Below are positions 2,076 to 15,507 of a stretch of 64,000 bases of DNA, piece by piece. Made by a program: the position numbers and the translations under genes. Numbering within the stretch: position 1 is the stretch's first letter; every line of letters begins with the position of its first letter. The notes beneath the pieces are model-generated. The model saw only the letters and a program-made list of their open reading frames with translations. It searched no databases and was not told the DNA's origin. The stretch spans positions 2,572,097 through 2,636,096 of the forward strand of contig OZ244145.1 of assembly GCA_965216245.1 (NCBI GenBank). The letters run 5' to 3'. This DNA comes from Chloroflexota bacterium. GTDB lineage: Bacteria; Chloroflexota; UBA11872; VXOZ01.

Positions 2076-3710
2076 CTACAAGTAATCCACGGGCTCTCTA
2101 TTGTGGCAGTTGGGGTAATCGTCGCGTTCGGGAGTGTCGATGACAGGAAACGCCGGGCCTTCGTTCATGCGCTCGAAGAAGGTGGCATCTGCTGAGGTAA
2201 CGTCGCACCAGAAGAAGCCCATGGCCTGGAAGGTAGCGTAGTTCGGGATGTGGCGCCACTGGAGCAGACCCGGGTCGAAAGCGAAGATACGGACGTCATC
2301 GTTGTCGAAGCGGCGGACGAGCATGTTGGGTTCTGGGGCGGTGTGGTCGAGGGGAATGGCGGAGACGACGTCAACGGGCACACTGTACTCGGTGTTGACG
2401 ATAGCCCAGGGGATTTGATAGACGTACAGGTCGTAGGGAGGTATCCAGCGGCGGACGATACAGTTGCCGCCTTCATGGCGGGCGATGTAGTAGGTTTGGC
2501 CGAGGGTTTGGTCGCGAATGATGCCGACGATGACGCGGGCGGAGGCGTCATGGGCGAACCAGCCGATACCGAATTCGATGGTGGTGCCTGGGATGTCGAG
2601 GCGTTCGAGCCAGAGGAGGTCGCCTGGGAGTTCGTAGGCCATGGCGGCGGCGGTGTTGCCGACGAGGTTTTTGACGGTAGAGCCGTCCGGAGGACGTGGA
2701 GCGCAGCCGTCAGCGGAGCGGGAGCCGCCGCCGCCACCACCTCCACCACCGCCACCGCCGCCACCACCACCGCCCCCGCCGGCGTTAGGTGCGGTACCGG
2801 GAACTTTGTCGGGATTCTGCGGCGGATCGTTATTGTCCTGCGGCGGATCGTTATTGTCCTGTGGCGGGTTGTTATTGTCCGGTGGCGGATTGTTGTCGTC
2901 CGGTGGCGGATTGTTGTCATCGGGCGGCGGATTGTTGCTAGTGTCCGGTGGATCACCACCTCTGACTTTTATGTTGAACAAAGAGACGGGCCCCATCACC
3001 CTTTTTAGTCTCTTCTTCACTTCGTAGGCAATACCTATGCTTACGTTGCCTACAGCGTCTGGATCCAACGTGACCGTAACGGAGTTTCCATGATACTCGT
3101 CCCACCAAACTTCGCCTTCGTCCTCGCAGTCATTGTCGTTGTTCTTATCGCCAGTCACGATGTGATGGTTGGTTTCGCTTAATAGAACATAGCCCAGGGA
3201 TGTCCCAGAGGAGTGGACAAGCAAGCTGTCGCCACATTCGACGCCACTCAAGCTCGTTGGGTCACCCGTAAAGCCTAGGGTGAACGACTGGCTCACTCCT
3301 GGGGAGACTGACAAATAGGCTTGATCGATAGTGTTGTATTCGAAGTCGCTAGAGGTCACGGTCAAGGTGAAGTTACCACTGCCCAGCGTGCTCCCCGCGC
3401 TGGCTGCCATGATGGCGACCAGCAGCGCGCCGGCGGGGATGATGCGCCACTTGATGCCTGTGAGCCAGTTCCACAGAATGGCCAGCAGAGTCTGCGGTAG
3501 CCTCTTCGCCGGGACGTTCGGCAGCTTGATCCGTGCCAGCCAGCAGAATAGGATTACGAGATAAGCGAGCAGGAGTAGTCCAGCAAGGGCGACTCCCCGC
3601 CTGCCGTCTGCTAACCAGTTCAGCGGAGTAACTGTCATCTTGCCTGATTTCATGGAAATTGCTTCCTCCGGTAATCTCTCTTGATCGGGGCTTCGGGAGA
3701 GCGAGTTCAA
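2076..3710 (-). CDS. Membrane-anchored repeat-linker protein, copy 1 (544 aa). Layout: TM/signal region, divergent beta-rich middle domain, PPDDNN repeats, polyGly(19), conserved uncharacterised C-terminal domain.
   Basis: Long ORF. Hydrophobic segments near the N-terminus. Coding tandem repeats. The last ~230 aa are near-identical to copy 2. Confidence 0.8.
   Translation of the reverse strand: MNSLSRSPDQERLPEEAISMKSGKMTVTPLNWLADGRRGVALAGLLLLAYLVILFCWLARIKLPNVPAKRLPQTLLAILWNWLTGIKWRIIPAGALLVAIMAASAGSTLGSGNFTLTVTSSDFEYNTIDQAYLSVSPGVSQSFTLGFTGDPTSLSGVECGDSLLVHSSGTSLGYVLLSETNHHIVTGDKNNDNDCEDEGEVWWDEYHGNSVTVTLDPDAVGNVSIGIAYEVKKRLKRVMGPVSLFNIKVRGGDPPDTSNNPPPDDNNPPPDDNNPPPDNNNPPQDNNDPPQDNNDPPQNPDKVPGTAPNAGGGGGGGGGGGGGGGGGGGSRSADGCAPRPPDGSTVKNLVGNTAAAMAYELPGDLLWLERLDIPGTTIEFGIGWFAHDASARVIVGIIRDQTLGQTYYIARHEGGNCIVRRWIPPYDLYVYQIPWAIVNTEYSVPVDVVSAIPLDHTAPEPNMLVRRFDNDDVRIFAFDPGLLQWRHIPNYATFQAMGFFWCDVTSADATFFERMNEGPAFPVIDTPERDDYPNCHNREPVDYL
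2724..2945. repeat. In-frame coding simple repeats in copy 1: a (GGN)n polyGly run at 2724-2783 and 18/21-bp PPDDNN-type tandem units at 2808-2945.
   Basis: Plus strand shows gccgccgccaccacc... and then reiterated cggcggatcgttattgtcctg units. Confidence 0.85.
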
Positions 3711-4355: not shown

Positions 4356-6026
<1,671 letters not shown>

Positions 6027-6592
6027 GAGACGCTAGAGGAAAATGCGATCTTGCTGAGAAACTAATCTGAATTCCAAGGAAAAAAGAGCACGGTTGCGGT
6101 AGGACATTCCGGCACAAGCTGCGTGTGCAGGCCGGATACCGATGCAAGAGGAAGTGAATGAGGCTCATGATCTTTGAATGAAGAGGCTTGGCTGAGAGCA
6201 GGTGCGCGCACTGGCGCAGACGTGAAGCCGGCGTTACCGCCGGTGCGGCTTAGGATATTGGCAAAATAATTGAGAAAAGGAAAAGCGGGAACGAACGCGT
6301 GATCGGATACCACCTAGGGTCTGAAGCCCAAGAGAAGGATGGCCCGTCTACCTCTAGAGGAGAATCGTTAGAATGAGTAGCTGAAGCAGACTCAATTCAG
6401 AAGAGAAAAGCGAAAAAGGCAGAATGGAACGTGCAATAGTGGGGCTGGTATCATTTCGTCAAGTACTATAACACAGGCCGCAAGTGAGAGCAAGCCCCCG
6501 GGTCAGTTCGCCGTCAATGAGCAGAGCAGCCTAACAATATGCGGCGGCGGGCATGTTTTTGACGATTTCAGTACTTGCTGCGTGACTTACAC

Positions 6593-7351
6593 TTAGAGCA
6601 AGCCCGCGGTGAGCCCGCCGTCGATGTGGATGACTTGACCGGTGATATAAGAGGCCACGTCACTCGTGAGGTACGAGACGAGCGCGGCGATCTCCTCCGG
6701 TCTGCCAGCGCGTTTGATGGGCAGCTTCTGCATCAGGCGGTCCATCAGGTGCGGGGGGATGTCATGGGTGAGATCGGTTGGGATGTACCCCGGCGCAATC
6801 GCATTGACCGTAATGCCTCTGCTGCCCATTTCCACGGCAGTGGAACGGGTGAATGCGACCACACCGGCCTTAGCGGCGGTGTAGTTGGCTTGGCCGGGAT
6901 TCCCCACCATCCAGCCGACCGAGGTTATGTTTATGATGCGCCCCCAGCGCTGCGCCAGCATAGGCCGCAGGGCGGCACGGGTGCAAAGGAAGGCGCCGCG
7001 CAGGTTGGTGTCTACGACAAGGTCCCAGTCGTCTTCGCTCATTTTGAGGACGAGGGTATCTTTGGTGATGCCGGCGTTATTCACCAAAACGTGGATGCTG
7101 CCGAACCGCTCCAGCGTGCGGTCGAAAACGGTTTTGACCGCGTCTGCGTCCCGCACGTCGCCGCTAACCGCCAAAGCACTGCCGCCGTCATTCTGGATTT
7201 GTGCTACGGCTTCGAGCGCGGCCTCCTCGTTTACCTGGTAGTTAATCGCTACGTTTGCGCCGGACGCAGCGAGATTGAGCGCAATCGTGCGCCCGATTCC
7301 GCGCGAGGCGCCGGTCACGAGTGCTGTCTTGCCAGAGAGGTGTTGTGCCAT
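6593..7351 (-). CDS. SDR-family 3-oxoacyl-ACP reductase (FabG-like)
   Basis: TALVTGASRGIGR glycine motif. NNAG and YxxxK (NYTAAK) are present. ATG at 7351 gives MAQHLSGK with an upstream GGAG. Confidence 0.85.
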   Translation of the reverse strand: MAQHLSGKTALVTGASRGIGRTIALNLAASGANVAINYQVNEEAALEAVAQIQNDGGSALAVSGDVRDADAVKTVFDRTLERFGSIHVLVNNAGITKDTLVLKMSEDDWDLVVDTNLRGAFLCTRAALRPMLAQRWGRIINITSVGWMVGNPGQANYTAAKAGVVAFTRSTAVEMGSRGITVNAIAPGYIPTDLTHDIPPHLMDRLMQKLPIKRAGRPEEIAALVSYLTSDVASYITGQVIHIDGGLTAGLL

Positions 7352-7489
7352 GAACTCCGCGCGTTGTAGCTGAGCTACTTTGCTGCTTTGGACGTTGGAC
7401 TGCCAGCCGAGACAGTAGATACGGGGACGCGCTCCTCCCTGCGGTGACTGCACGCCTCGTGGTGGCAGGTTTTGTGCTGAACTTCGCTG

Positions 7490-8332
7490 CTATGCCTTCT
7501 CGGCGACAACCTGCAGCCAGTAGCGGGGGACCGTTGTCAGATTCAACTCTCTGATTGCTTCCCGTATGCCGTGCTTCAGCACTGCCGCACCCACGTCCAG
7601 CGGCACGCCGGGCAAGACCCCCTCGATGAAGAGCGAATAATCGCTAATGTCCTCTATGCTCTCCAGGGTCATTTCAACTTGCTGACACTCGAGGTGGGTG
7701 ACAGTGAAGCCACTCTCGCCGAGCAGAGCCTCATATTGTTCGGGCGAAATCCAGCGCATAGCGGTGGTCTTTGCATTCTTGACAATCTTGACATTGGGAT
7801 ATTCTCGCCGCATCTGTTGCACCGCGCGCACGATCCACAAGCGGTTTGTTTTCTCTGTGATCGGGAGATAGGCGCCTTCGAAGAAGGTCGTGTTGAAGGC
7901 CAACACGCCGCCCGGATTGAGCGCCTTGCCGATTTCCTTGAAAACGGCGTGCTTATCTTCTATCAAGTGGATTGCATTGCAGAAGAAGAGCGCGTCGGCG
8001 GATGCGACAAGCTGCGATACGTTCTCCGCACTGCCGTGGAGAAACTTGACCATGGCATTCGTAACACTCTGCCGCGCCTTTTCCAGCGCCAACGGGGAAG
8101 GGTCTATTCCAAAGACCTGAGCCTTCAGGCCGAGATCCTGCACTTTAGCCAGGACCAATCGCGTGATTGCACCGGTGCCGCAACCAAGATCGACGATGCG
8201 CCGCTGTACGTTCGGATCCAGCCGCTCGAGGAAATTCAGAGCGGAATCTACAAGGTGCGTGTTGGTTTCACGATAGAAGTCATGTCGAGCAAACGGCTCA
8301 AAGGAGTAATCTGATCCTTGCGTACCACCCAT
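7490..8332 (-). CDS. Class I SAM-dependent methyltransferase
   Basis: Motif I is VDLGCGTGAITRLV. Start is ATG at 8332 with the RBS GGAGAGAGAGAGG. Confidence 0.8.
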   Translation of the reverse strand: MGGTQGSDYSFEPFARHDFYRETNTHLVDSALNFLERLDPNVQRRIVDLGCGTGAITRLVLAKVQDLGLKAQVFGIDPSPLALEKARQSVTNAMVKFLHGSAENVSQLVASADALFFCNAIHLIEDKHAVFKEIGKALNPGGVLAFNTTFFEGAYLPITEKTNRLWIVRAVQQMRREYPNVKIVKNAKTTAMRWISPEQYEALLGESGFTVTHLECQQVEMTLESIEDISDYSLFIEGVLPGVPLDVGAAVLKHGIREAIRELNLTTVPRYWLQVVAEKA

Positions 8333-8751
8333 AGAAGACCTCTCTCTCTCCGGCACAAACGCTCTCAATCCACTGGAGCGGCGCCGGATACTTTTCCTCT
8401 TCGCAGTCGGCAATAAACTCGGCAGCCGACTCTTCCACGGTTTCTGCGGTCAGTAGCGAAACCTAATTCCTCATCCTACCCTACCGCAGTAACTTCAAAC
8501 GCGTAGCATTGTCACCATTATACGGGTTTTCCGTGCAGAACGGACAGTCCCCAACCGGAGTTGTCCTTGGCGCCCAATGCCTAGAGCAAACCGGCCTGGA
8601 ACGCAATGCTACAATGGGTGCGTGGCCGCGCGCAAGGTCGGGCAACGAGAGGCCCACCGAATCGCCTAATGGTAGTGTTGCGCGTGAAGTAGCAACGTGT
8701 TCGGGCTGGGTGCGTTGCCTGCAAAAGTGGATCATAGGAGAGGATAGGCGC

Positions 8752-10081: not shown

Positions 10082-11527
10082 TTGGCAACCCTAACAGGGA
10101 CGATACACGACGCGACTACGGGCAACTCGCTGGCGGCGAAGGTCTCGGTGCAAAGCAGTCATGGCAGGTTCCTCGCGCCTGACAATAGCTTGGAGACCGT
10201 CGGCACGACTAATCCGTTCTTCTATAGCGACGGCACGTTCACACTGGAGTGTCCGCGGGGACAGGTGGACGTGCACGTGGAACGCGGCACGGAATATGCG
10301 CCGCTCCACATGACCGTTGACCTCCCGCTGCAGGGCTCCGTTAACCTTGAATTGCCTCTCCAGCGCTGGATTAGCCTGCCCTCTCAGGGTCTCTATCCCG
10401 GAAATACGCACATTCACTACCGCGAATTCGAGGCCCGACCGGAGGAGCGCCTGCGCTTCGATTCCACAGTAGAAGACCTCACCGTAACTATCGTCAGTGT
10501 GTTGCAGCGCCAAGAACTGGATTATGCGACCAATCGATTCCCTGTGGGCCGCATGGAGCATCCCACCGTGCCGGATCACGTGCTGGACGTTGGTGAAGAG
10601 GCTCGCCACAATGCAACCCCGTGGGATATCGGCTACGGTCACGTGATGCTGGTGCGATTGCAGGAACAGGTCGAGCCGCTCAGTCGCGGCGTGCTAGTGG
10701 ACGAATCGGCGCCGGACTATCCGCCGCTGATCGATGCGTGCGCTACGGCGCAGGAGCAAGGCGGCGTGACGATTTGGTGCCACAACGGCCAGGGTATGGA
10801 GGCGCCCATTGCCGCCGGCCTGGGGCGTCTGGACGCTCTAAACCTCTTTGACCCCTATTGGTCGGACCCGGAGTACGACCTTTGGTACCACTTGCTGAAT
10901 TGCGGATTTCGCTTGCCGGTGAGTACCGGTTCCGATTGGTTCGTGTGCTCGGCGAACCGGGTGTACGTCCAGCTTGAGGACTCTTTCTCGTATGACTCGT
11001 GGCTTAGCGGCCTCAAGAGCGGCGCTACGTTCATTACCAACGGCCCTGCGCTCACCCTGCGCGTTGCCGGCCAACCGCCGGGACAGGTGGTGGATCTGAG
11101 CACAAGCAGGCGCAAGCAGGTGAATACCTTTGTGCGATGGCAGGCCCTGCGACCGGTGCAGCGCATCGAGCTGGTCTGCAATGGGGACGTGGTGGCGCGG
11201 GAGGAGTATAGCGAGGGTCTGCGCGAAGGTGTCTTACGCGCAAGACTGACAGTGCCCAACGATAGTTGGATCGCCGCCCGCTGCTGGGGGCGTCAGCGCG
11301 ATAGCTACGGCCACGCCCAATGGGCCCACACTAGTCCGGTCTACGTGCAAGCGGGGGGATCGAATCCGGCGACCAGAGCCTCGGCCGAGTTCTTTGTGGA
11401 GAAGATCGAGCACGCGATTGCGTGGGTTGCGACGAAGGGCCGCTTCGACCACGATGACCAACGGCAACGTATGCTGGAAATCTTCAGCACGGGCCGCGAG
11501 CAGTACGCGCGGCTTGCTCGCGGATAG
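10082..11527 (+). CDS. PHP/CehA-McbA-like metallohydrolase with an N-terminal carboxypeptidase-regulatory-like domain. TTG start.
   Basis: N-terminal TGTIHDATTGNSLAAKVSV beta-sandwich-like segment. GNTHIHY His-rich PHP-like motif. The family call is tentative. Confidence 0.55.
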   Translation: MATLTGTIHDATTGNSLAAKVSVQSSHGRFLAPDNSLETVGTTNPFFYSDGTFTLECPRGQVDVHVERGTEYAPLHMTVDLPLQGSVNLELPLQRWISLPSQGLYPGNTHIHYREFEARPEERLRFDSTVEDLTVTIVSVLQRQELDYATNRFPVGRMEHPTVPDHVLDVGEEARHNATPWDIGYGHVMLVRLQEQVEPLSRGVLVDESAPDYPPLIDACATAQEQGGVTIWCHNGQGMEAPIAAGLGRLDALNLFDPYWSDPEYDLWYHLLNCGFRLPVSTGSDWFVCSANRVYVQLEDSFSYDSWLSGLKSGATFITNGPALTLRVAGQPPGQVVDLSTSRRKQVNTFVRWQALRPVQRIELVCNGDVVAREEYSEGLREGVLRARLTVPNDSWIAARCWGRQRDSYGHAQWAHTSPVYVQAGGSNPATRASAEFFVEKIEHAIAWVATKGRFDHDDQRQRMLEIFSTGREQYARLARG

Positions 11528-11683
11528 GCGCAATGACAGTTCATGTCAATCCTGTAAGTGTCAGGTATTTCGTTGACAGAATCCCCTTCAAACTCGGCAG
11601 TGTTGGCAGATCATGTCATTCCGAGCGGAGCGAGGAATCTAGAGCGCCTGACCACTTTCCTTCCCGAACTCGCTCTTCATTGT

Positions 11684-11818
11684 GACTGTCAGGGGGCAGC
11701 GCGGGAGCTAAAGGCCTTCTTAGGGTAGCGTGCCTGAAGTGCAGAGCGGATGGATTCCCGCTTTCGCGGGAATGACGGTCCAGGATGCCGATTACTTTTC
11801 GCACCGATGGCGACCACG
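11684..11818. repeat. 135-bp dispersed element, copy 1. Contains the family-2 hairpin GGATTCCCGCTTTCGCGGGAATGAC. It is preceded at 11615-11639 by a related GTCATTCCGAGCGGAGCGAGGAATC hairpin.
   Basis: About 99% identical to 11961-12097. Confidence 0.85.
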
Positions 11819-11960
11819 CAGTTGTAGGGAAAACACGACCTAAATGCCTTCGCGCCGGTCTTCCCAGGCGTTCCAGTAGAGTTCCTCAATTTCCTCCAGC
11901 GTCGGTTGGCGGGGATTGCTGGCGACGTTGGGGTCCTGGGAACCGTTAGCGACAAGCTGC

Positions 11961-12097
11961 GACTGTCAGGGGGCAGCGCGGGAGCTAGAAGGCCTTCTTA
12001 GGGTAGCGTGCCTGAAGTGCAGAGCGGATGGATTCCCGCTTTCGCGGGAATGACGGTCCAGGATGCCGATTACTTTTCGCACCGATGGCGACCACGG
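11961..12097. repeat. 135-bp dispersed element, copy 2. Overlaps the 3' end of the Fe-ADH gene.
   Basis: Direct repeat of 11684-11818. Confidence 0.85.
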
Positions 12098-13149
12098 AGC
12101 GCTTGGGACAATTGCTCCTTGGTCACGCCCGCGTCTTGCAGAGAAGCAGGCAAGCCGACTTGGGAACGCAGCGCGGCGAGAGCGTCGATGAGAGAGGCGA
12201 TGGGCCTGTTGGAACTATCGAGGCCAAGGCGTGCCGCCAACTCTGCATACAGCGCTCCGGCGGCGCGCGCATTGTAGGCGACTATGTGGGGCAGCAGGAT
12301 CGCATTGGCGCGGCCGTGGGGAATGCCGAAGGCCGGCGTGATCTGGTGCGACAGGGCGTGGCAGAGGCCCAAACCGGCCCGCATCGTAGCGCCTGCCATG
12401 GTTGCCGCCACGTGCATCTCAGCACGCGCCGGCGTATTTCCCGACTCCTGAACGGACGCGGGCAAGTGCGCCATGACTGCGGCTATGGCTGCGCTTGCCA
12501 ATGCTTGCGTCAGCCGGTGGGATTCCCGGCAGGCGAAAGATTCGACTGCGTGCGCCAGCGCGTCGTAGCCGCTGTCCGCCGCCACGTGGGGCGGCATGGT
12601 GGCCGGCACTGCCGCGTCGAGAATTGCGGCATCGGGAGGGCCGGTGAAGAGAATGCGCTTGACCGGCGGCTGCGCGTTGTTGTCCGTTATCACGGCTCCG
12701 CGGCTGACTTCCGAGCCGGTGCCGCTGGTGGAGGGAATGGCGATACAGGTCATTTGCCCGGTCTCGCGCGGCGGGGGATTGAAGCCTGCGGCCACGAGCT
12801 CCGGCACTGTAACGCCGGGTGTCTCGCACGCGGCGCGAATGGTCTTGGTGACGTCCAGCGTGGAGCCCCCGCCCAGGCCGACGATCGTATCCGGCGCAAA
12901 TTCCTCGGCAAGTGCCACGCCCGCGGCGCAGGTCTCCTGCGATGGGTCGGGTTCGACGGCGTCGAAGATAGCCGTCGCTGCGCCCGCCTGGCGCGCCAAG
13001 CCGCACACCCGCTCGGTGAACCCCAATTCCGTCATCACCGGGTCCGCCACCACCATCACCCGCTTGCCGCACAACGTCGGCAGCACGTCTAACGCGCCAT
13101 CCCCAAGATGGATTTCGGTGGCAATCGAAAACGACTGGATGTCCACGAG
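12070..13149 (-). CDS. Iron-containing alcohol dehydrogenase family protein. The C-terminal 8 codons come from repeat copy 2. A GTG start is likely.
   Basis: Fe-ADH hallmarks: GGGS..D, metal-binding His cluster (HALSHQ), and SFSIATEIHLGDGALD N-terminus. GAAGGAG lies before GTG. Confidence 0.75.
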   Translation of the reverse strand, partial: LVDIQSFSIATEIHLGDGALDVLPTLCGKRVMVVADPVMTELGFTERVCGLARQAGAATAIFDAVEPDPSQETCAAGVALAEEFAPDTIVGLGGGSTLDVTKTIRAACETPGVTVPELVAAGFNPPPRETGQMTCIAIPSTSGTGSEVSRGAVITDNNAQPPVKRILFTGPPDAAILDAAVPATMPPHVAADSGYDALAHAVESFACRESHRLTQALASAAIAAVMAHLPASVQESGNTPARAEMHVAATMAGATMRAGLGLCHALSHQITPAFGIPHGRANAILLPHIVAYNARAAGALYAELAARLGLDSSNRPIASLIDALAALRSQVGLPASLQDAGVTKEQLSQALRGRHRCEK

Positions 13150-13559
13150 CACTGCTCCTTCAGAAGGTGGTGTCGCCGCGACCACAAAAGACCTACGGGA
13201 AGCAAATCCTCCAAATAGCACGAAATGACCAGTTTCTATGTGGGTCTCACTGTTTCCGTAGTATACGGTATTCCTTGACGAAAGGGAGACTGCTCCAATA
13301 CGCTGGACTTTGTGTGTTGGGATGACGCATTGTAGCGCGAGTTAGTCTTGGTAGTGCATTGAGCCACAGCGCAAAGATTTCGAAGGGCGCGGTCGCTCTG
13401 GTACCATGAATTCAGAATAGTGCGTTGGAACGTAGGTGTCTCTCTGTCCTAACGGGAAGTACTAGCTGTAATTAGGTAGCGGAATTGTCCACAAGCCGGT
13501 GAATATGATAGACCTTGCCCTATCTCATGGAATTCAGTCCCTGACTGCGTAGAACCGTC

Positions 13560-14909
13560 ATGATTACCTCACTCCGCCTAGTAAATTTCAAGAACTTTGC
13601 CGACGAGACGCTCCGACTTGGCCCTTTCACCTTGATTGTGGGGGCTAACGCTACCGGCAAGAGCAATATTCGCGATGCTTTTCGATTCTTGCACGGAATT
13701 GCTCGTAACTATACTCTAGCGGAAATTGTTGGTGGAAAGTACGGCGCGGAATGGCGGCCAATCCGTGGTGCCCCCAATGAGATTATCCGCTTTGGAAAAG
13801 ATGCATTTACTCTTGAAGTCGAGATGCCAGGGACGAGATCCCTTGCTACTCACTTTGACAGCGTACACTATCGTATCGGCATCAAACGAGAGAATGAAAG
13901 TGAGAGCCGACTTCGAGTCACAGCCGAATCAATGGTCATTGATTCCAATAACCGCGATTCACCATTATCGGGAACACTTTATACCACCGACCAACATCGG
14001 GATAGTAACATTGGCGCGCCTGAAGAGGATTTTAGGCTGCGTCTCCACATGCCTGAGGCTAACGATCCACTGGAAGTTTCGTCGGATCAACCTGGTCTTG
14101 CGCAGATTGCCCAGGCGGCTTCTGAGGCGCTCCAGGCGATGCAGGGCGAAGTCAACGAGGACGATTTACCTGATAGAATTATTGCTTTGGCAAAAGCGAA
14201 TGTCGGAGCGCTTCAAGGTATTATGACGTTTGCCAAGATGCGCTTCCTTGAACTAGCGCCGGAACGAATGCGGGAACCCGCCTTCCCGGACACAACAAGA
14301 CTGGGCGACTCGGGCGAGAATTTGCCGGCAGTGCTCAAGAAAATCTGCGCTGATACCAAGCGCAAGGACGTTCTACTATCGTGGTTGCAAGAACTTACCC
14401 CTATGGATGTAAGAGACCTGGAATTTCCAGTGGACTTCAGTGGCAAAGTGAATATTCTGATCCAAGATGGCAATAAACAAAAGTTTTCAGCCTACAGTGC
14501 ATCAGATGGCACGCTGCGCTTTCTCGGCATACTGGCTGCCCTGCTAAATGAGGAGGACGACGGACTGTATTTCTTTGAGGAGATTGACAATGGATTCCAT
14601 CCAGCGCGACTGCACCTCTTGCTCGACCTCATCGAACGGCAGACAGCTAAGGGAAAAATCCAGGTTGTTGCTACTACGCATTCGCCTGACGTGCTGAATC
14701 TCATCAATGACACCACATTCGAGAGTACGGTTGTAGTGTATCGCGACGAGCAATCCGCAAATGCCACTATCCAGCAGGTATCGGAGCTTCCCAATGCCAG
14801 AGAGTTGCGGAAGTCCCAGGGCTTGGGGCGCCTCCACACCGGCGGTTGGATGGAGAACATACTGTCCTTTGCGGAGGCGGATAGGGAAGAAGAGAAGGGC
14901 GGAGAATGA
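13560..14909 (+). CDS. ABC-type AAA ATPase (AAA_15/AAA_21-like). Putative ATPase subunit of a two-gene defence module.
   Basis: Walker A GANATGKSN. ABC-signature-like SDGTLRFL. Walker B LYFFEEIDNGFHP. H-loop ATTHSP. Local GC is lower than the flanks. Confidence 0.8.
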   Translation: MITSLRLVNFKNFADETLRLGPFTLIVGANATGKSNIRDAFRFLHGIARNYTLAEIVGGKYGAEWRPIRGAPNEIIRFGKDAFTLEVEMPGTRSLATHFDSVHYRIGIKRENESESRLRVTAESMVIDSNNRDSPLSGTLYTTDQHRDSNIGAPEEDFRLRLHMPEANDPLEVSSDQPGLAQIAQAASEALQAMQGEVNEDDLPDRIIALAKANVGALQGIMTFAKMRFLELAPERMREPAFPDTTRLGDSGENLPAVLKKICADTKRKDVLLSWLQELTPMDVRDLEFPVDFSGKVNILIQDGNKQKFSAYSASDGTLRFLGILAALLNEEDDGLYFFEEIDNGFHPARLHLLLDLIERQTAKGKIQVVATTHSPDVLNLINDTTFESTVVVYRDEQSANATIQQVSELPNARELRKSQGLGRLHTGGWMENILSFAEADREEEKGGE

Positions 14910-15460
14910 GGGTTCTCCTGATCCCAGAAGACTTCCGCAACGACCAGCACATTCTGAAGCCCATCTTCAAAAGGCTCTTCAGTGATCTTGGGAGGCCTTC
15001 GCTGCGCGTTGAGATTTGCCTTGACCCATTGCTTGGCGGCGTCGGAGAGGCATTGAAATCGGAACGCTTGAAGGAAATTGTGCAACAATATCCAACGATA
15101 AACATCTTCATACTTTGCATTGATCGCGATGGTGATGTGGGGAGACGCAAAAGGCTGGACCAGATCGAAACCGAGTTCGGCGACGCCTTCTTTGCAGAGA
15201 ATGCTTGGGAAGAAATCGAGACTTGGGTACTAGCTGGGTTGAATCTGCCTGCAGGCTGGAGTTGGCAGGAAGTACGCAAGGAAGTCCACGTCAAAGAAAC
15301 GTATTTCGAGTCGCTTGCTGCCGAACGTGGCTTGGCCGATGCCCCCGGCGGGGGACGAAAAGAGTTAGGTAAGCAGGCCGCGCGTCAAATCGGCGAGATA
15401 CGGCGGAAGTGTACCGAGGATTTCGATTCCCTTGCGCGACGGCTCGAGTCCGTGGTTTAA
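14906..15460 (+). CDS. Small TOPRIM-like protein (DUF4276/RloB-like, 184 aa). Putative nuclease partner.
   Basis: ATGA start/stop overlap with the upstream ATPase. N-terminal LLIPEDF (acidic residue after a beta-strand) and a CIDRDGD DxD-type motif. Confidence 0.6.
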   Translation: MRVLLIPEDFRNDQHILKPIFKRLFSDLGRPSLRVEICLDPLLGGVGEALKSERLKEIVQQYPTINIFILCIDRDGDVGRRKRLDQIETEFGDAFFAENAWEEIETWVLAGLNLPAGWSWQEVRKEVHVKETYFESLAAERGLADAPGGGRKELGKQAARQIGEIRRKCTEDFDSLARRLESVV

Positions 15461-15507
15461 GGTTACATACCCAGTAGCTATGTAGGTTTACCTTGAAAGG
15501 ACTGCAG

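Follow-up and report, generated by a model that had tools for sequence, protein, structure and literature searches.

A low-GC islet of a Chloroflexota genome encodes a probable two-gene anti-phage cassette built from an ABC ATPase and a stand-alone TOPRIM-like protein

Introduction

What is a short, compositionally atypical pair of genes doing among the metabolic genes of a Chloroflexota bacterium? [quoted passage not shown] A first-pass annotation of the window, by which we mean the entire 64-kb stretch of DNA analyzed, had proposed that the islet holds a candidate defense module of this kind. We conclude that the islet is probably an anti-phage cassette of two genes, self-contained and exchanged horizontally, in which an ABC-ATPase sensor is paired with a stand-alone TOPRIM nuclease. 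This reading is based upon gene structure, folds, motifs, strict co-occurrence of the two genes, embedding in defense systems, a hypervariable insert and allele replacement; from these features we infer complex formation, nuclease activity, a substrate, a trigger and a defense phenotype for the cassette.

Results

Composition and neighbors of the islet

The two plus-strand open reading frames described in the first-pass annotation are both present, and the ATGA sequence through which the start of the smaller overlaps the stop of the larger suggests that their translation is coupled. The features of the locus are as follows.

13222-15492: low-GC islet, GC 0.514
13222-13559, no strand: leader of the cassette, low-GC and non-coding, left edge of the variable block, GC 0.488
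13560-14909, plus strand: gene A, 449 aa, ATG start, OLD/SMC-type ABC ATPase, presumed sensor and regulator
14906-15460, plus strand: gene B, 184 aa, ATG start, TOPRIM-like, remote DUF4276 relative, presumed metal-dependent nuclease effector
14906-14909, plus strand: ATGA stop/start overlap of genes A and B

The low GC content also holds up. GC ranges from 0.47 to 0.54 over 13200-15400 as compared with 0.60-0.69 in the flanks, and the islet, at 0.514, compares with 0.591 as the mean of the window (sd 0.020 for segments of equal size), only 2 of 1235 such segments being lower. GC3 of the two cassette genes is 0.54 and 0.60 versus 0.73-0.75 for the adjoining genes. The neighbors are metabolic, namely an Fe-ADH on the minus strand upstream and a Rieske protein followed by LeuC and LeuD downstream. 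No tRNA lies within the 64-kb window and neither an integrase nor other defense genes adjoin the cassette, in agreement with the earlier observation that integrase and tRNA landmarks are missing. No third gene, regulator, RNA element, promoter or terminator was found in or around the islet, and the leader lacks a sigma-70 consensus, matches nothing in Rfam and has no open reading frame for which homologues exist; it is the presumed position of the cassette promoter.

Gene A encodes an ABC ATPase with a hypervariable insert

Gene A possesses an ABC ATPase head fold whose best structural matches are the heads of SMC and Rad50. Among Pfam models, AAA_21 scores 108.8 bits (cut-off 27), AAA_15 60.9 (32.1) and SMC_N 48.8 (40). 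The four ATPase motifs named in the first-pass annotation are all found in the translation.

13641-13667, plus strand: Walker A (P-loop) GANATGKSN, residues 28-36
13800-14219, plus strand: hypervariable insert, residues 81-220, proposed trigger-sensing surface
14502-14519, plus strand: ABC signature-like SDGTLR, residues 315-320 (SDGTLRFL, 315-322)
14565-14582, plus strand: Walker B LYFFEE, residues 336-341 (LYFFEEID, 336-343)
14673-14681, plus strand: H-loop TTH, residues 372-374 (ATTHSP, 371-376)

Taken jointly, GANATGKSN, SDGTLR, FFEE and TTH are at least 96% conserved across the 74 ATPases of related loci. The Walker A residues G28, N30, A31, G33, K34, S35 and N36 are kept in at least 97% of these proteins, as are SDGTLR and TTH, and all three motifs are invariant in alignment A3. 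The acidic pair of Walker B is Glu-Glu where Asp-Glu would be the usual form, with E340 being Glu in 72 and Asp in 2 of the 74 relatives, and E341 Glu in 71 and Asp in 3.

Residues 81-220 behave otherwise. Identity to the window residue falls to 7-28% per 20-residue block in this insert, with many gaps, against 54-89% elsewhere, and in four related loci (L011, L013, L049 and L071) gene A matches are confined to the N- and C-terminal parts. The insert likely forms a surface that recognizes a phage-derived trigger.

Gene B encodes a small protein with a TOPRIM pattern

Both motifs reported for the small protein, LLIPEDF (residues 4-10) and CIDRDGD (residues 71-77), are present in its translation, and the acidic positions that they contain belong to three conserved sites.

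14927-14944, plus strand: Glu8 at the end of strand 1 and Asp13 in helix 1, putative metal ligands
15122-15130, plus strand: DxD motif Asp73-Arg74-Asp75 after strand 3
15212-15226, plus strand: E103-x-E105-x-W107 after strand 4

Across 89 diverse family members E8, D13 and E105 do not vary, and D73, R74, D75, E103 and W107 are at least 90% conserved. The predicted model places strands at residues 2-7, 34-37, 67-73 and 95-100, alternating with helices, the first of which spans residues 10-27. Judged by the succession of strands and helices along the chain, sequence and model together show the TOPRIM pattern of a Glu after strand 1, a DxD after strand 3 and a four-stranded beta-alpha core, and they support the TOPRIM-like assignment made earlier. 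The acidic cluster of E8/D13, D73-x-D75 and E103/E105 is predicted to bind a divalent metal and to cut nucleic acid.

The DUF4276/RloB-like label given to gene B stands in part. The window protein itself matches neither DUF4276 (PF14103, gathering cut-off 30.2 bits), even at E<=1, nor RloB, and searches against Pfam, NCBIfam, PADLOC and PHROGs return nothing at E<=1 beyond noise (DUF373, DinI); the recommended check with Pfam and PADLOC models therefore finds AAA_21 on gene A, and no DUF4276, RloB or DUF4435 on gene B. What survives is a remote relationship to DUF4276 seen through the relatives of gene B, of which 44 of 89 match that model at E<=1 and 11 of 89 at E<=0.001 (best 1.8e-7). Alignment of the gene B family by hhalign with a 27-sequence DUF4276 subfamily gives E 0.16, short of significance, and comparisons with a single DUF4276-like protein, a third small-partner family met in related loci and the DUF4276 subfamily span E 0.05-0.16, with the motifs aligned and the scores non-significant. 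The DUF4276 subfamily and the third partner family also have an ExW-like motif. Gene B is thus a remote DUF4276 relative that lies outside DUF4276 as the Pfam model defines it.

Foldseek searches of the PDB with the gene B model yield nothing below E 0.01. Since a search of all PDB chains with the family profile gave chance matches alone (hnRNP A2/B1, E 0.075), no solved relative of gene B is detectable by sequence.

Clustering at 90% identity divides the family into more than 2,000 clusters, and 535 representatives stand for it at 50%. Gene B proteins that are 61-78% identical occur in no fewer than 10 lineages of phylum or class rank, which include Chloroflexota, Latescibacterota, Binatia, Proteobacteria, Acidobacteriota, Gemmatimonadota, Nitrospirota, Bacteroidota and Actinomycetota. 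Many carriers are sponge- or marine-symbiont MAGs. No homologues of the cassette were found in a phage collection.

The two genes travel together, alone or within methylation-based systems

An ATPase gene lies directly upstream of the gene B relative in 83 of 83 related loci, and since this order recurs throughout, the pair is beyond chance. Stop and start overlap by the same 4 bp in 69 of 79 related loci, and the GC of the pair is below that of its flanks in 78 of 79. In 25 of the 83 loci (three duplicates; about 30%) the pair has a DUF1156 methyltransferase on one side and a DUF499 ATPase on the other, the position held by mad3 and mad4 in MADS-like systems; in 54 of 83 (about 65%) neither partner is found within 6 kb. 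The six syntenic Chloroflexota loci form a clade and are all free-standing, and embedded and free copies are interleaved in a similarity dendrogram of gene B. The L002/L012 locus on OX638329.1 is one example of a MADS-like locus that carries the family; the methyltransferase and the DUF499 protein of L002 have no tblastn match anywhere in the 64-kb window. One copy of the cassette is carried on a plasmid, near an integrase.

Co-occurrence across genomes, whose absence the first-pass annotation had named as a refutation, together with the defense context and the hypervariable insert, supports the view of the pair as a candidate defense module.

Allele replacement at a conserved slot

Comparison with a near-conspecific locus, L005, reveals flanks that are 94-100% identical and a cassette that is 51-82% identical, with pS of 0.62-0.67. 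Nucleotide identity is 92-98% at 12106-13105 and drops to 58-64% from about position 13106. Near-identical flanks around a synonymously saturated cassette indicate that one allele has been replaced by another, and on this ground rapid evolution in situ was rejected as the source of the divergence. Purifying selection acts on gene B and on the core of the ATPase (dN/dS 0.05-0.19, window versus L005), whereas dN/dS of the insert is 0.42-0.75 and residues 81-220 have no detectable similarity in L005. The hypervariable insert, the low GC of the pair, the cross-phylum spread of gene B and the L005 allele replacement make up the signature of an arms race.

Discussion

A model for the cassette

The conserved head of gene A (residues 1-80 and 221-440) is taken to bind and hydrolyze ATP, and its insert (residues 81-220) is the likely site of recognition of a phage-derived trigger. 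On the pattern of PARIS, Septu and Gabija, we propose that the protein would oligomerize and hold gene B inactive. Binding of the trigger, coupled to ATP binding or hydrolysis, would release or activate gene B, and the freed nuclease would degrade nucleic acid, either DNA or tRNA, halting phage replication, possibly at a cost to the cell. The same cassette also serves as the mad3/mad4-like module of methyltransferase-DUF499 systems (MADS, BREX-related type 1), where it may act as a restriction or back-up effector.

Alternative explanations

Embedding in such systems also lends some weight to an unlikely alternative, in which the pair is non-autonomous, either a mad3/mad4-like accessory of a DUF1156/DUF499 system located elsewhere in the genome or an orphan left after the loss of one. 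Roughly 30% of the closest relatives are placed directly between the two partners, the dendrogram of gene B mixes embedded with free copies, and in MADS itself mad3 and mad4 are needed for defense and deletion of mad5 depends on loss of mad2 or mad3. Against this stand the 54 of 83 loci that lack both partners within 6 kb, the uniformly free-standing Chloroflexota clade, a 64-kb window devoid of methyltransferase and DUF499 homologues, purifying selection on both genes, and the description of PARIS- and HEC-type dyads as self-contained. The mobility of the cassette, its low GC and its spread across phyla would suit a selfish, toxin-antitoxin-like addiction cassette, with gene B a toxic nuclease and gene A its ATP-dependent antidote, kept by post-segregational killing and recombination and not by protection from phage. 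The plasmid-borne copy near an integrase and the Pfam label of AAA_21, a "putative AbiEii toxin, Type IV TA system" domain, point the same way. We nevertheless regard addiction as decidedly unlikely: a hypervariable ATPase insert fits a sensor of diverse external ligands and would not be expected of an antidote whose one toxin is conserved, and the pair is repeatedly embedded in methylation-based defense systems. Toxin-antitoxin and abortive-infection functions can coexist.

Two further readings can be given very little credence. That the genes form a housekeeping pair for DNA repair or chromosome maintenance, a RecF/SbcC/Rad50-like ATPase with a TOPRIM nuclease, is suggested by the SMC and Rad50 heads among the best structural matches of the ATPase, by weak N-terminal RecF/SMC matches in NCBIfam and by a cassette slot conserved across six related genomes. 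Yet the RecF/SMC/Rad50 matches span only the P-loop region and fall far under curated cut-offs, the ATPase has no coiled coil, GC and GC3 are atypical, between near-identical genomes the cassette has been swapped for an allele saturated at synonymous sites, and it is scattered patchily over different phyla; for these reasons a vertically inherited housekeeping gene is a poor fit and we consider this origin very improbable. Slighter still is the chance that the cassette is a decaying relic that no longer functions, as an isolated position and the lack of a recognizable promoter might indicate, given that neither reading frame is disrupted, every catalytic motif has been kept and dN/dS is close to 0.1.

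Significance

The preferred reading, a self-contained defense cassette, opens no new category of defense. It does draw attention to a large sister family of DUF4276-type proteins that is missed by the Pfam, NCBIfam, PADLOC and PHROG models, and that is therefore undercounted in defense censuses of environmental and symbiont genomes. At 184 aa gene B is compact, and it is also highly conserved and modeled with confidence; its partner ATPases form a natural series differing mainly in one insert, which makes the family convenient material for work on trigger recognition and on whether the module is the nuclease arm of MADS-like systems. A bolder proposal, which we hold to be doubtful though worth stating, is that the gene B family is a distinct and unusually conserved TOPRIM effector whose partner ATPase carries a swappable sensor insert, the two being a community-shared unit that acts alone or as the restriction effector of MADS-like methyltransferase-DUF499 systems. 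If gene B were such an effector, this would account for the cutting of DNA by MADS-type systems and would reveal a defense family invisible to current annotation tools.

Comparison with known systems

HEC-01, a PADLOC candidate, pairs the ABC ATPase HEC-01A with the DUF4276-type TOPRIM protein HEC-01B (Payne et al., 10.1101/2024.01.29.577857). The representative studied by those authors gave no protection in E. coli against any phage tried (10.1101/2024.01.29.577857), and one HEC-01 representative has shielded E. coli B from at least one phage (10.1101/2024.09.26.614923). Gene A matches HEC-01A at 9.2e-42, but the window gene B has no HEC-01B match even at E<=1 and 23 of its 89 relatives match weakly. 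Gene A scores better on the PDC-M07A models (3.6e-68), its best PADLOC match, and PDC-M07 and HEC-01 use the same ATPase family, FAM_00005, in the authors' own clustering. Membership of PDC-M07, suggested by that best match, was rejected, as PDC-M07B matches neither the window gene B nor any of the relatives (0 of 89).

MAD3 and MAD4 are likewise an ABC ATPase and a DUF4276-like protein. Deletion of mad3 or mad4 lowers protection by MADS (Maestri et al., 10.1101/2023.03.30.534895), and mad5 can be deleted solely when mad2 or mad3 is also deleted (10.1101/2023.03.30.534895), a dependence that points to functional coupling in MADS. Gene A matches PADLOC mad3 at 2.6e-25, and mad4 matches are found in 4 of 89 gene B relatives but not in the window protein. 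The window pair differs from MADS in that gene A reaches 89.3 bits where the NCBIfam MAD3 equivalog NF047739 requires 420, and in that the pair stands free between Fe-ADH and Rieske genes, with no methyltransferase or DUF499 gene within 64 kb.

In PARIS, the ABC ATPase AriA acts with AriB, a DUF4435 TOPRIM nuclease of about 35 kDa (PMC11464382). The window partner has only 184 aa and no DUF4435 match, and neither gene product resembles the solved AriA or AriB chains significantly in sequence. The PARIS ATPase is a hexamer that holds the nuclease and lets it go once an anti-restriction protein is sensed. Septu differs in that its PtuB partner is an HNH protein, whereas gene B is TOPRIM-like, and gene A scores 23.9 bits on NCBIfam PtuA (cut-off 500); the poor fit to AriB and PtuB noted in the first-pass annotation is thereby upheld. 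OLD-family nucleases and GajA of Gabija fuse the ATPase and TOPRIM domains that occupy two separate reading frames here, and no GajB-type helicase adjoins the cassette. AbiLi models, from the AbiL pair of an AbiLi ATPase and an RloB-like AbiLii, match gene A at 4.2e-25, but gene B has no match to RloB (PF13707), to which 6 of 89 relatives are weakly similar at E<=1 (best 0.0018). Since gene B fits neither RloB nor PDC-M07B, neither AbiL nor PDC-M07 can be called under PADLOC rules. [quoted passage not shown]

The cassette and its base composition

The cassette comprises two ORFs:

13560..14909, plus strand: gene A, ABC ATPase, 449-aa ORF
14906..15460, plus strand: gene B, small TOPRIM-like protein, 184-aa ORF

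The ATG of B and the TGA of A share 4 bp (ATGA, 14906-14909). Both plus-strand ORFs and their overlap are present in the window as the first-pass annotation described them, and every motif that it quoted is found in the translations. Its description of a low-GC islet without an adjacent tRNA likewise holds. GC is 0.47-0.54 over the segment and 0.60-0.69 on either side; the islet (13222-15492) has a GC of 0.514 against a window mean of 0.591 (sd 0.020), with only 2 of 1235 same-size windows lower, which makes it essentially the GC minimum at this size within 64 kb. GC at the third codon position is 0.54 and 0.60 in the pair, compared with 0.73-0.75 in the neighboring Fe-ADH, Rieske and LeuC genes, and no tRNA occurs in the 64-kb window. 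The 338-bp leader of the islet contains no consensus promoter, Rfam family or credible small ORF.

Gene A is an intact ATPase with a hypervariable insert

A matches Pfam AAA_21 with 108.8 bits (cut-off 27), and AAA_15 and SMC_N also match. PADLOC models matched are PDC-M07A (3.6e-68), HEC-01A (9.2e-42), AriA (2.4e-34), mad3 (2.6e-25) and AbiLi (4.2e-25), while NCBIfam yields sub-threshold matches only, namely MAD3 (89 bits, cut-off 420) and PtuA (24 bits, cut-off 500).

Features of A (the four motifs are each kept in at least 96% of 74 relatives)
G28-N36: Walker A
315-320: ABC signature SDGTLR
E340/E341: Walker B FFEE
T372-H374: H-loop
81-220: variable insert, between the P-loop helix and the remainder of the head

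The above-threshold AAA_21 match and the retention of all four nucleotide-site motifs confirm the proposed ABC-type ATPase. Across relatives, residues 81-220 are 7-28% identical with many gaps, as opposed to 54-89% in other parts of A, and in four loci similarity of the A homologue is detectable in its N- and C-terminal parts only. These comparisons establish A as an intact ABC ATPase carrying a hypervariable insert.

Gene B is a TOPRIM-like protein related remotely to DUF4276

B has no family match in Pfam, NCBIfam, PADLOC or PHROGs. Its relatives form 2144 clusters at 90% identity (535 representatives at 50%), none of which carries a precomputed Pfam domain and in which any name given is 'hypothetical'; judged by sequence, B is the founder of a large family. 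An alignment of 89 diverse members shows no variation at E8, D13 and E105 and at least 90% conservation of D73, R74, D75, R80, E103, W107, K130, E131, R151, C169 and E171.

The AlphaFold model of B is predicted very confidently (pLDDT 97.8, pTM 0.92), with strands 2-7, 34-37, 67-73 and 95-100 alternating with helices and a helical C-terminal half. The ends of strands 1 and 3 in this model bear E8 and D73-x-D75, respectively, positions that match the TOPRIM layout known from OLD nucleases, RNase M5, DUF4276 and RloB (PMC12065111). Foldseek found no significant match to B in the PDB, and a B-family profile found no solved relative by sequence among PDB chains. In class 2 OLD enzymes a Glu...Glu pair and a DxD motif form a two-metal site; we take the invariant E8...D13 of B (strand 1, helix 1) to resemble that Glu...Glu pair.

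A comparison of the B family with one DUF4276 subfamily by hhalign was not significant and aligned the three motifs. The link to DUF4276 comes instead from member-by-member scans of the 89 relatives, in which DUF4276 is the sole recurring Pfam family (44/89 at E<=1, 11/89 at E<=0.001, best 1.8e-7; RloB, 6/89 at E<=1) and HEC-01B (23/89) and mad4 (4/89) are the recurring PADLOC families. B is established as TOPRIM-like, its acidic cluster conserved and its translation coupled to that of A, and is best described as a putative remote sister family of DUF4276 beyond the reach of current models. The earlier suggestion of a TOPRIM-like, DUF4276/RloB-like protein is supported in substance by motifs, predicted strands and member-wise DUF4276 matches.

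The pairing is obligate across distant lineages

A search through one genome per species identified 518 relatives. The best 80 of these loci encode proteins 61-78% identical to B and span about ten phylum- or class-level lineages (L004-L083): Chloroflexota/Dehalococcoidia, Latescibacterota, Binatia, Alpha- and Gammaproteobacteria, Vicinamibacterales/Terriglobia, Gemmatimonadota, Nitrospira, Rhodothermaceae and Mycobacteriaceae MAGs. An A homologue stops at the start of B in 83 of 83 loci, which bears out the expected co-occurrence and establishes the pairing as obligate. The 4-bp overlap is kept in 69/79 loci, the pair is lower in GC than its flanks in 78/79, and B (61-78%) is consistently better conserved than A (40-65%). 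The phage collection yielded no homologue.

Many of the carrier MAGs (jk18x..., RHO1_bin, CAR2_bin, SB0661_bin) are presumably sponge-microbiome bins, to judge from their names. Partial support for this origin comes from a paper on sponge-symbiont Poribacteria, in which SB0661/SB0670 identifiers occur (PMC7883664).

Plasmid pBOCT1 of Brasilonema octagenarum (CP030122.1, 252 kb) carries a pair at 6754-8582 that keeps the 4-bp overlap and has a 51%-identical B. Upstream, ~2 kb away, is an integrase gene, and ~2.7 kb downstream lies one for an HNH endonuclease; the record labels the pair only 'ATPase' and 'hypothetical protein'. As this cyanobacterium is cultured, its pair could be a tractable experimental source.

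Two Dehalococcoidia MAGs show further variation. One contig (CBDDDS010000003.1) holds two copies (L011, L013) ~17 kb apart in opposite orientation, with equal scores against the query; their ATPases match over the first 88 and last ~220 residues alone and so carry a different insert. In the other (CBDCPE010000004.1, 3377-5962), the ATPase match is in two pieces, residues 1-60 (3377-3556) and 56-440 (4886-5962), a split indicating an insertion of ~1.3 kb by which the gene appears interrupted.

Divergent alleles occupy one slot

In the window and five related Chloroflexota genomes, the pair shares one slot, with an Fe-dependent alcohol dehydrogenase gene on one side and one for a Rieske protein on the other. 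Locus L005, from a near-conspecific genome, is 94-100% identical to the window across most of the flanking sequence (~4 kb left and 6 kb right of the islet). Identity falls to 51-68% from ~13106 to 14500, is 76-82% from 14506 to 15300 and 66% at 15306-15505, and again exceeds 94% from ~15700. Saturation of synonymous sites inside the cassette (pS 0.62-0.67, dS ~1.3-1.7) rules out divergence in situ; the two genomes hold different, anciently diverged cassette alleles in the same slot. Purifying selection acts strongly on B (dN/dS ~0.1) and the ATPase core (0.05-0.19) and much more weakly on the A insert (0.42-0.75, approximate owing to saturation). The effector is conserved, the sensor-like insert has diversified and alleles are exchanged at one fixed position, a combination such as would be expected of immune genes.

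Near the slot, in the interval from a gene that ends near 11527 to the Fe-ADH 3' end, a GC-rich element of ~153 nt is directly repeated (11681-11833 and 11958-12111; 95-97% identical; start-to-start 277-278 nt), with no further copy elsewhere in the window. L005 aligns with a 134-nt gap at these repeats, which suggests copy-number variation.

Methylation-based defence systems recurrently harbor the pair

A DUF1156 N6-adenine methyltransferase and a DUF499 ATPase flank the pair in 25 of 83 loci (~30%; three duplicates), sometimes preceded by an HTH gene; at other loci beyond the Chloroflexota slot the neighbors vary. This layout is that of MADS and 'type 1 BREX-related' systems. In MADS, mad3 is an ABC ATPase and mad4 a DUF4276 protein (PMC12065111), accessory genes absent from some systems (10.1101/2023.03.30.534895). 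Recurrent residence of the pair inside methylation-based defence systems is thereby established. Embedded and free-standing copies interleave in the B similarity dendrogram, which indicates that the same cassette moves into and out of methyltransferase-DUF499 systems. The 64-kb window itself contains no methyltransferase or DUF499 homologue.

One methyltransferase-DUF499 island in a Latescibacteria MAG (OX638329.1, 1-9898) contains two distinct ABC-ATPase + small-TOPRIM pairs. One is of the DUF4276 type and precedes the DUF1156 methyltransferase (partner at 734-1315); the other, of the window type, lies at 4745-6564, with an HTH gene on one side and the DUF499 gene on the other. A third small-partner family (~210 aa) lies downstream of a further ABC ATPase near DUF499 genes:

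L041, 9855-10487
L042, 10792-11430
L047, 3354-4031
L072, 9808-10371

Its consensus, LVILAADKD...FDH.G.G...PELE.W.W, has a TOPRIM/DUF4276-like motif layout without the DxD, and a Pfam scan of two members, L041 and L042, gave no match.

Proposed mechanism

By analogy with PARIS (PMC11464382), Septu and Gabija (PMC12065111) and the HEC study (10.1101/2024.01.29.577857), an oligomer of A may restrain the putative nuclease B. A phage-derived ligand would engage the variable insert of A, ATP binding or hydrolysis would turn this signal into release or activation of B, and B would then cut DNA or tRNA. MADS performs methylation-dependent restriction of phage and plasmids and requires mad3 and mad4 (10.1101/2023.03.30.534895); this context points towards DNA as a possible substrate, and PARIS points towards tRNA.

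Comparison with known systems

The ABC ATPase + TOPRIM dyad is of a kind already known. Payne et al. describe HEC-01 as such a pair, with the tested HEC-01B labeled a DUF4276 family protein, and observed no protection in E. coli (10.1101/2024.01.29.577857); a later study reports that a cold-seep HEC-01 protects against at least one phage (10.1101/2024.09.26.614923). The AAA15/21 defence-ATPase tree of the PARIS paper contains DUF4276 partners (PMC11464382), and according to Rakesh and Krishnan OLD-ABC/TOPRIM dyads are pervasive in BREX and BREX-related systems, where they act as back-up effectors.

The reading of the pair as a candidate defence module stands in substance, and its novelty had been overestimated. 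HEC-01, MADS, PARIS and the BREX-related dyads already exemplify the kind. The pair would be of greater interest if the B family supplied MADS-like systems with their nuclease, or if a cassette pool common to symbiont communities lay behind its conservation across phyla. The A of the window matches the A-models of both HEC-01 and PDC-M07, whereas its B matches neither B-model, so that PADLOC rules would call neither system here; the ATPase of PDC-M07 belongs to the same family (FAM_00005), and its partner differs. Novelty is modest and lies in the B family, which falls outside every curated model.
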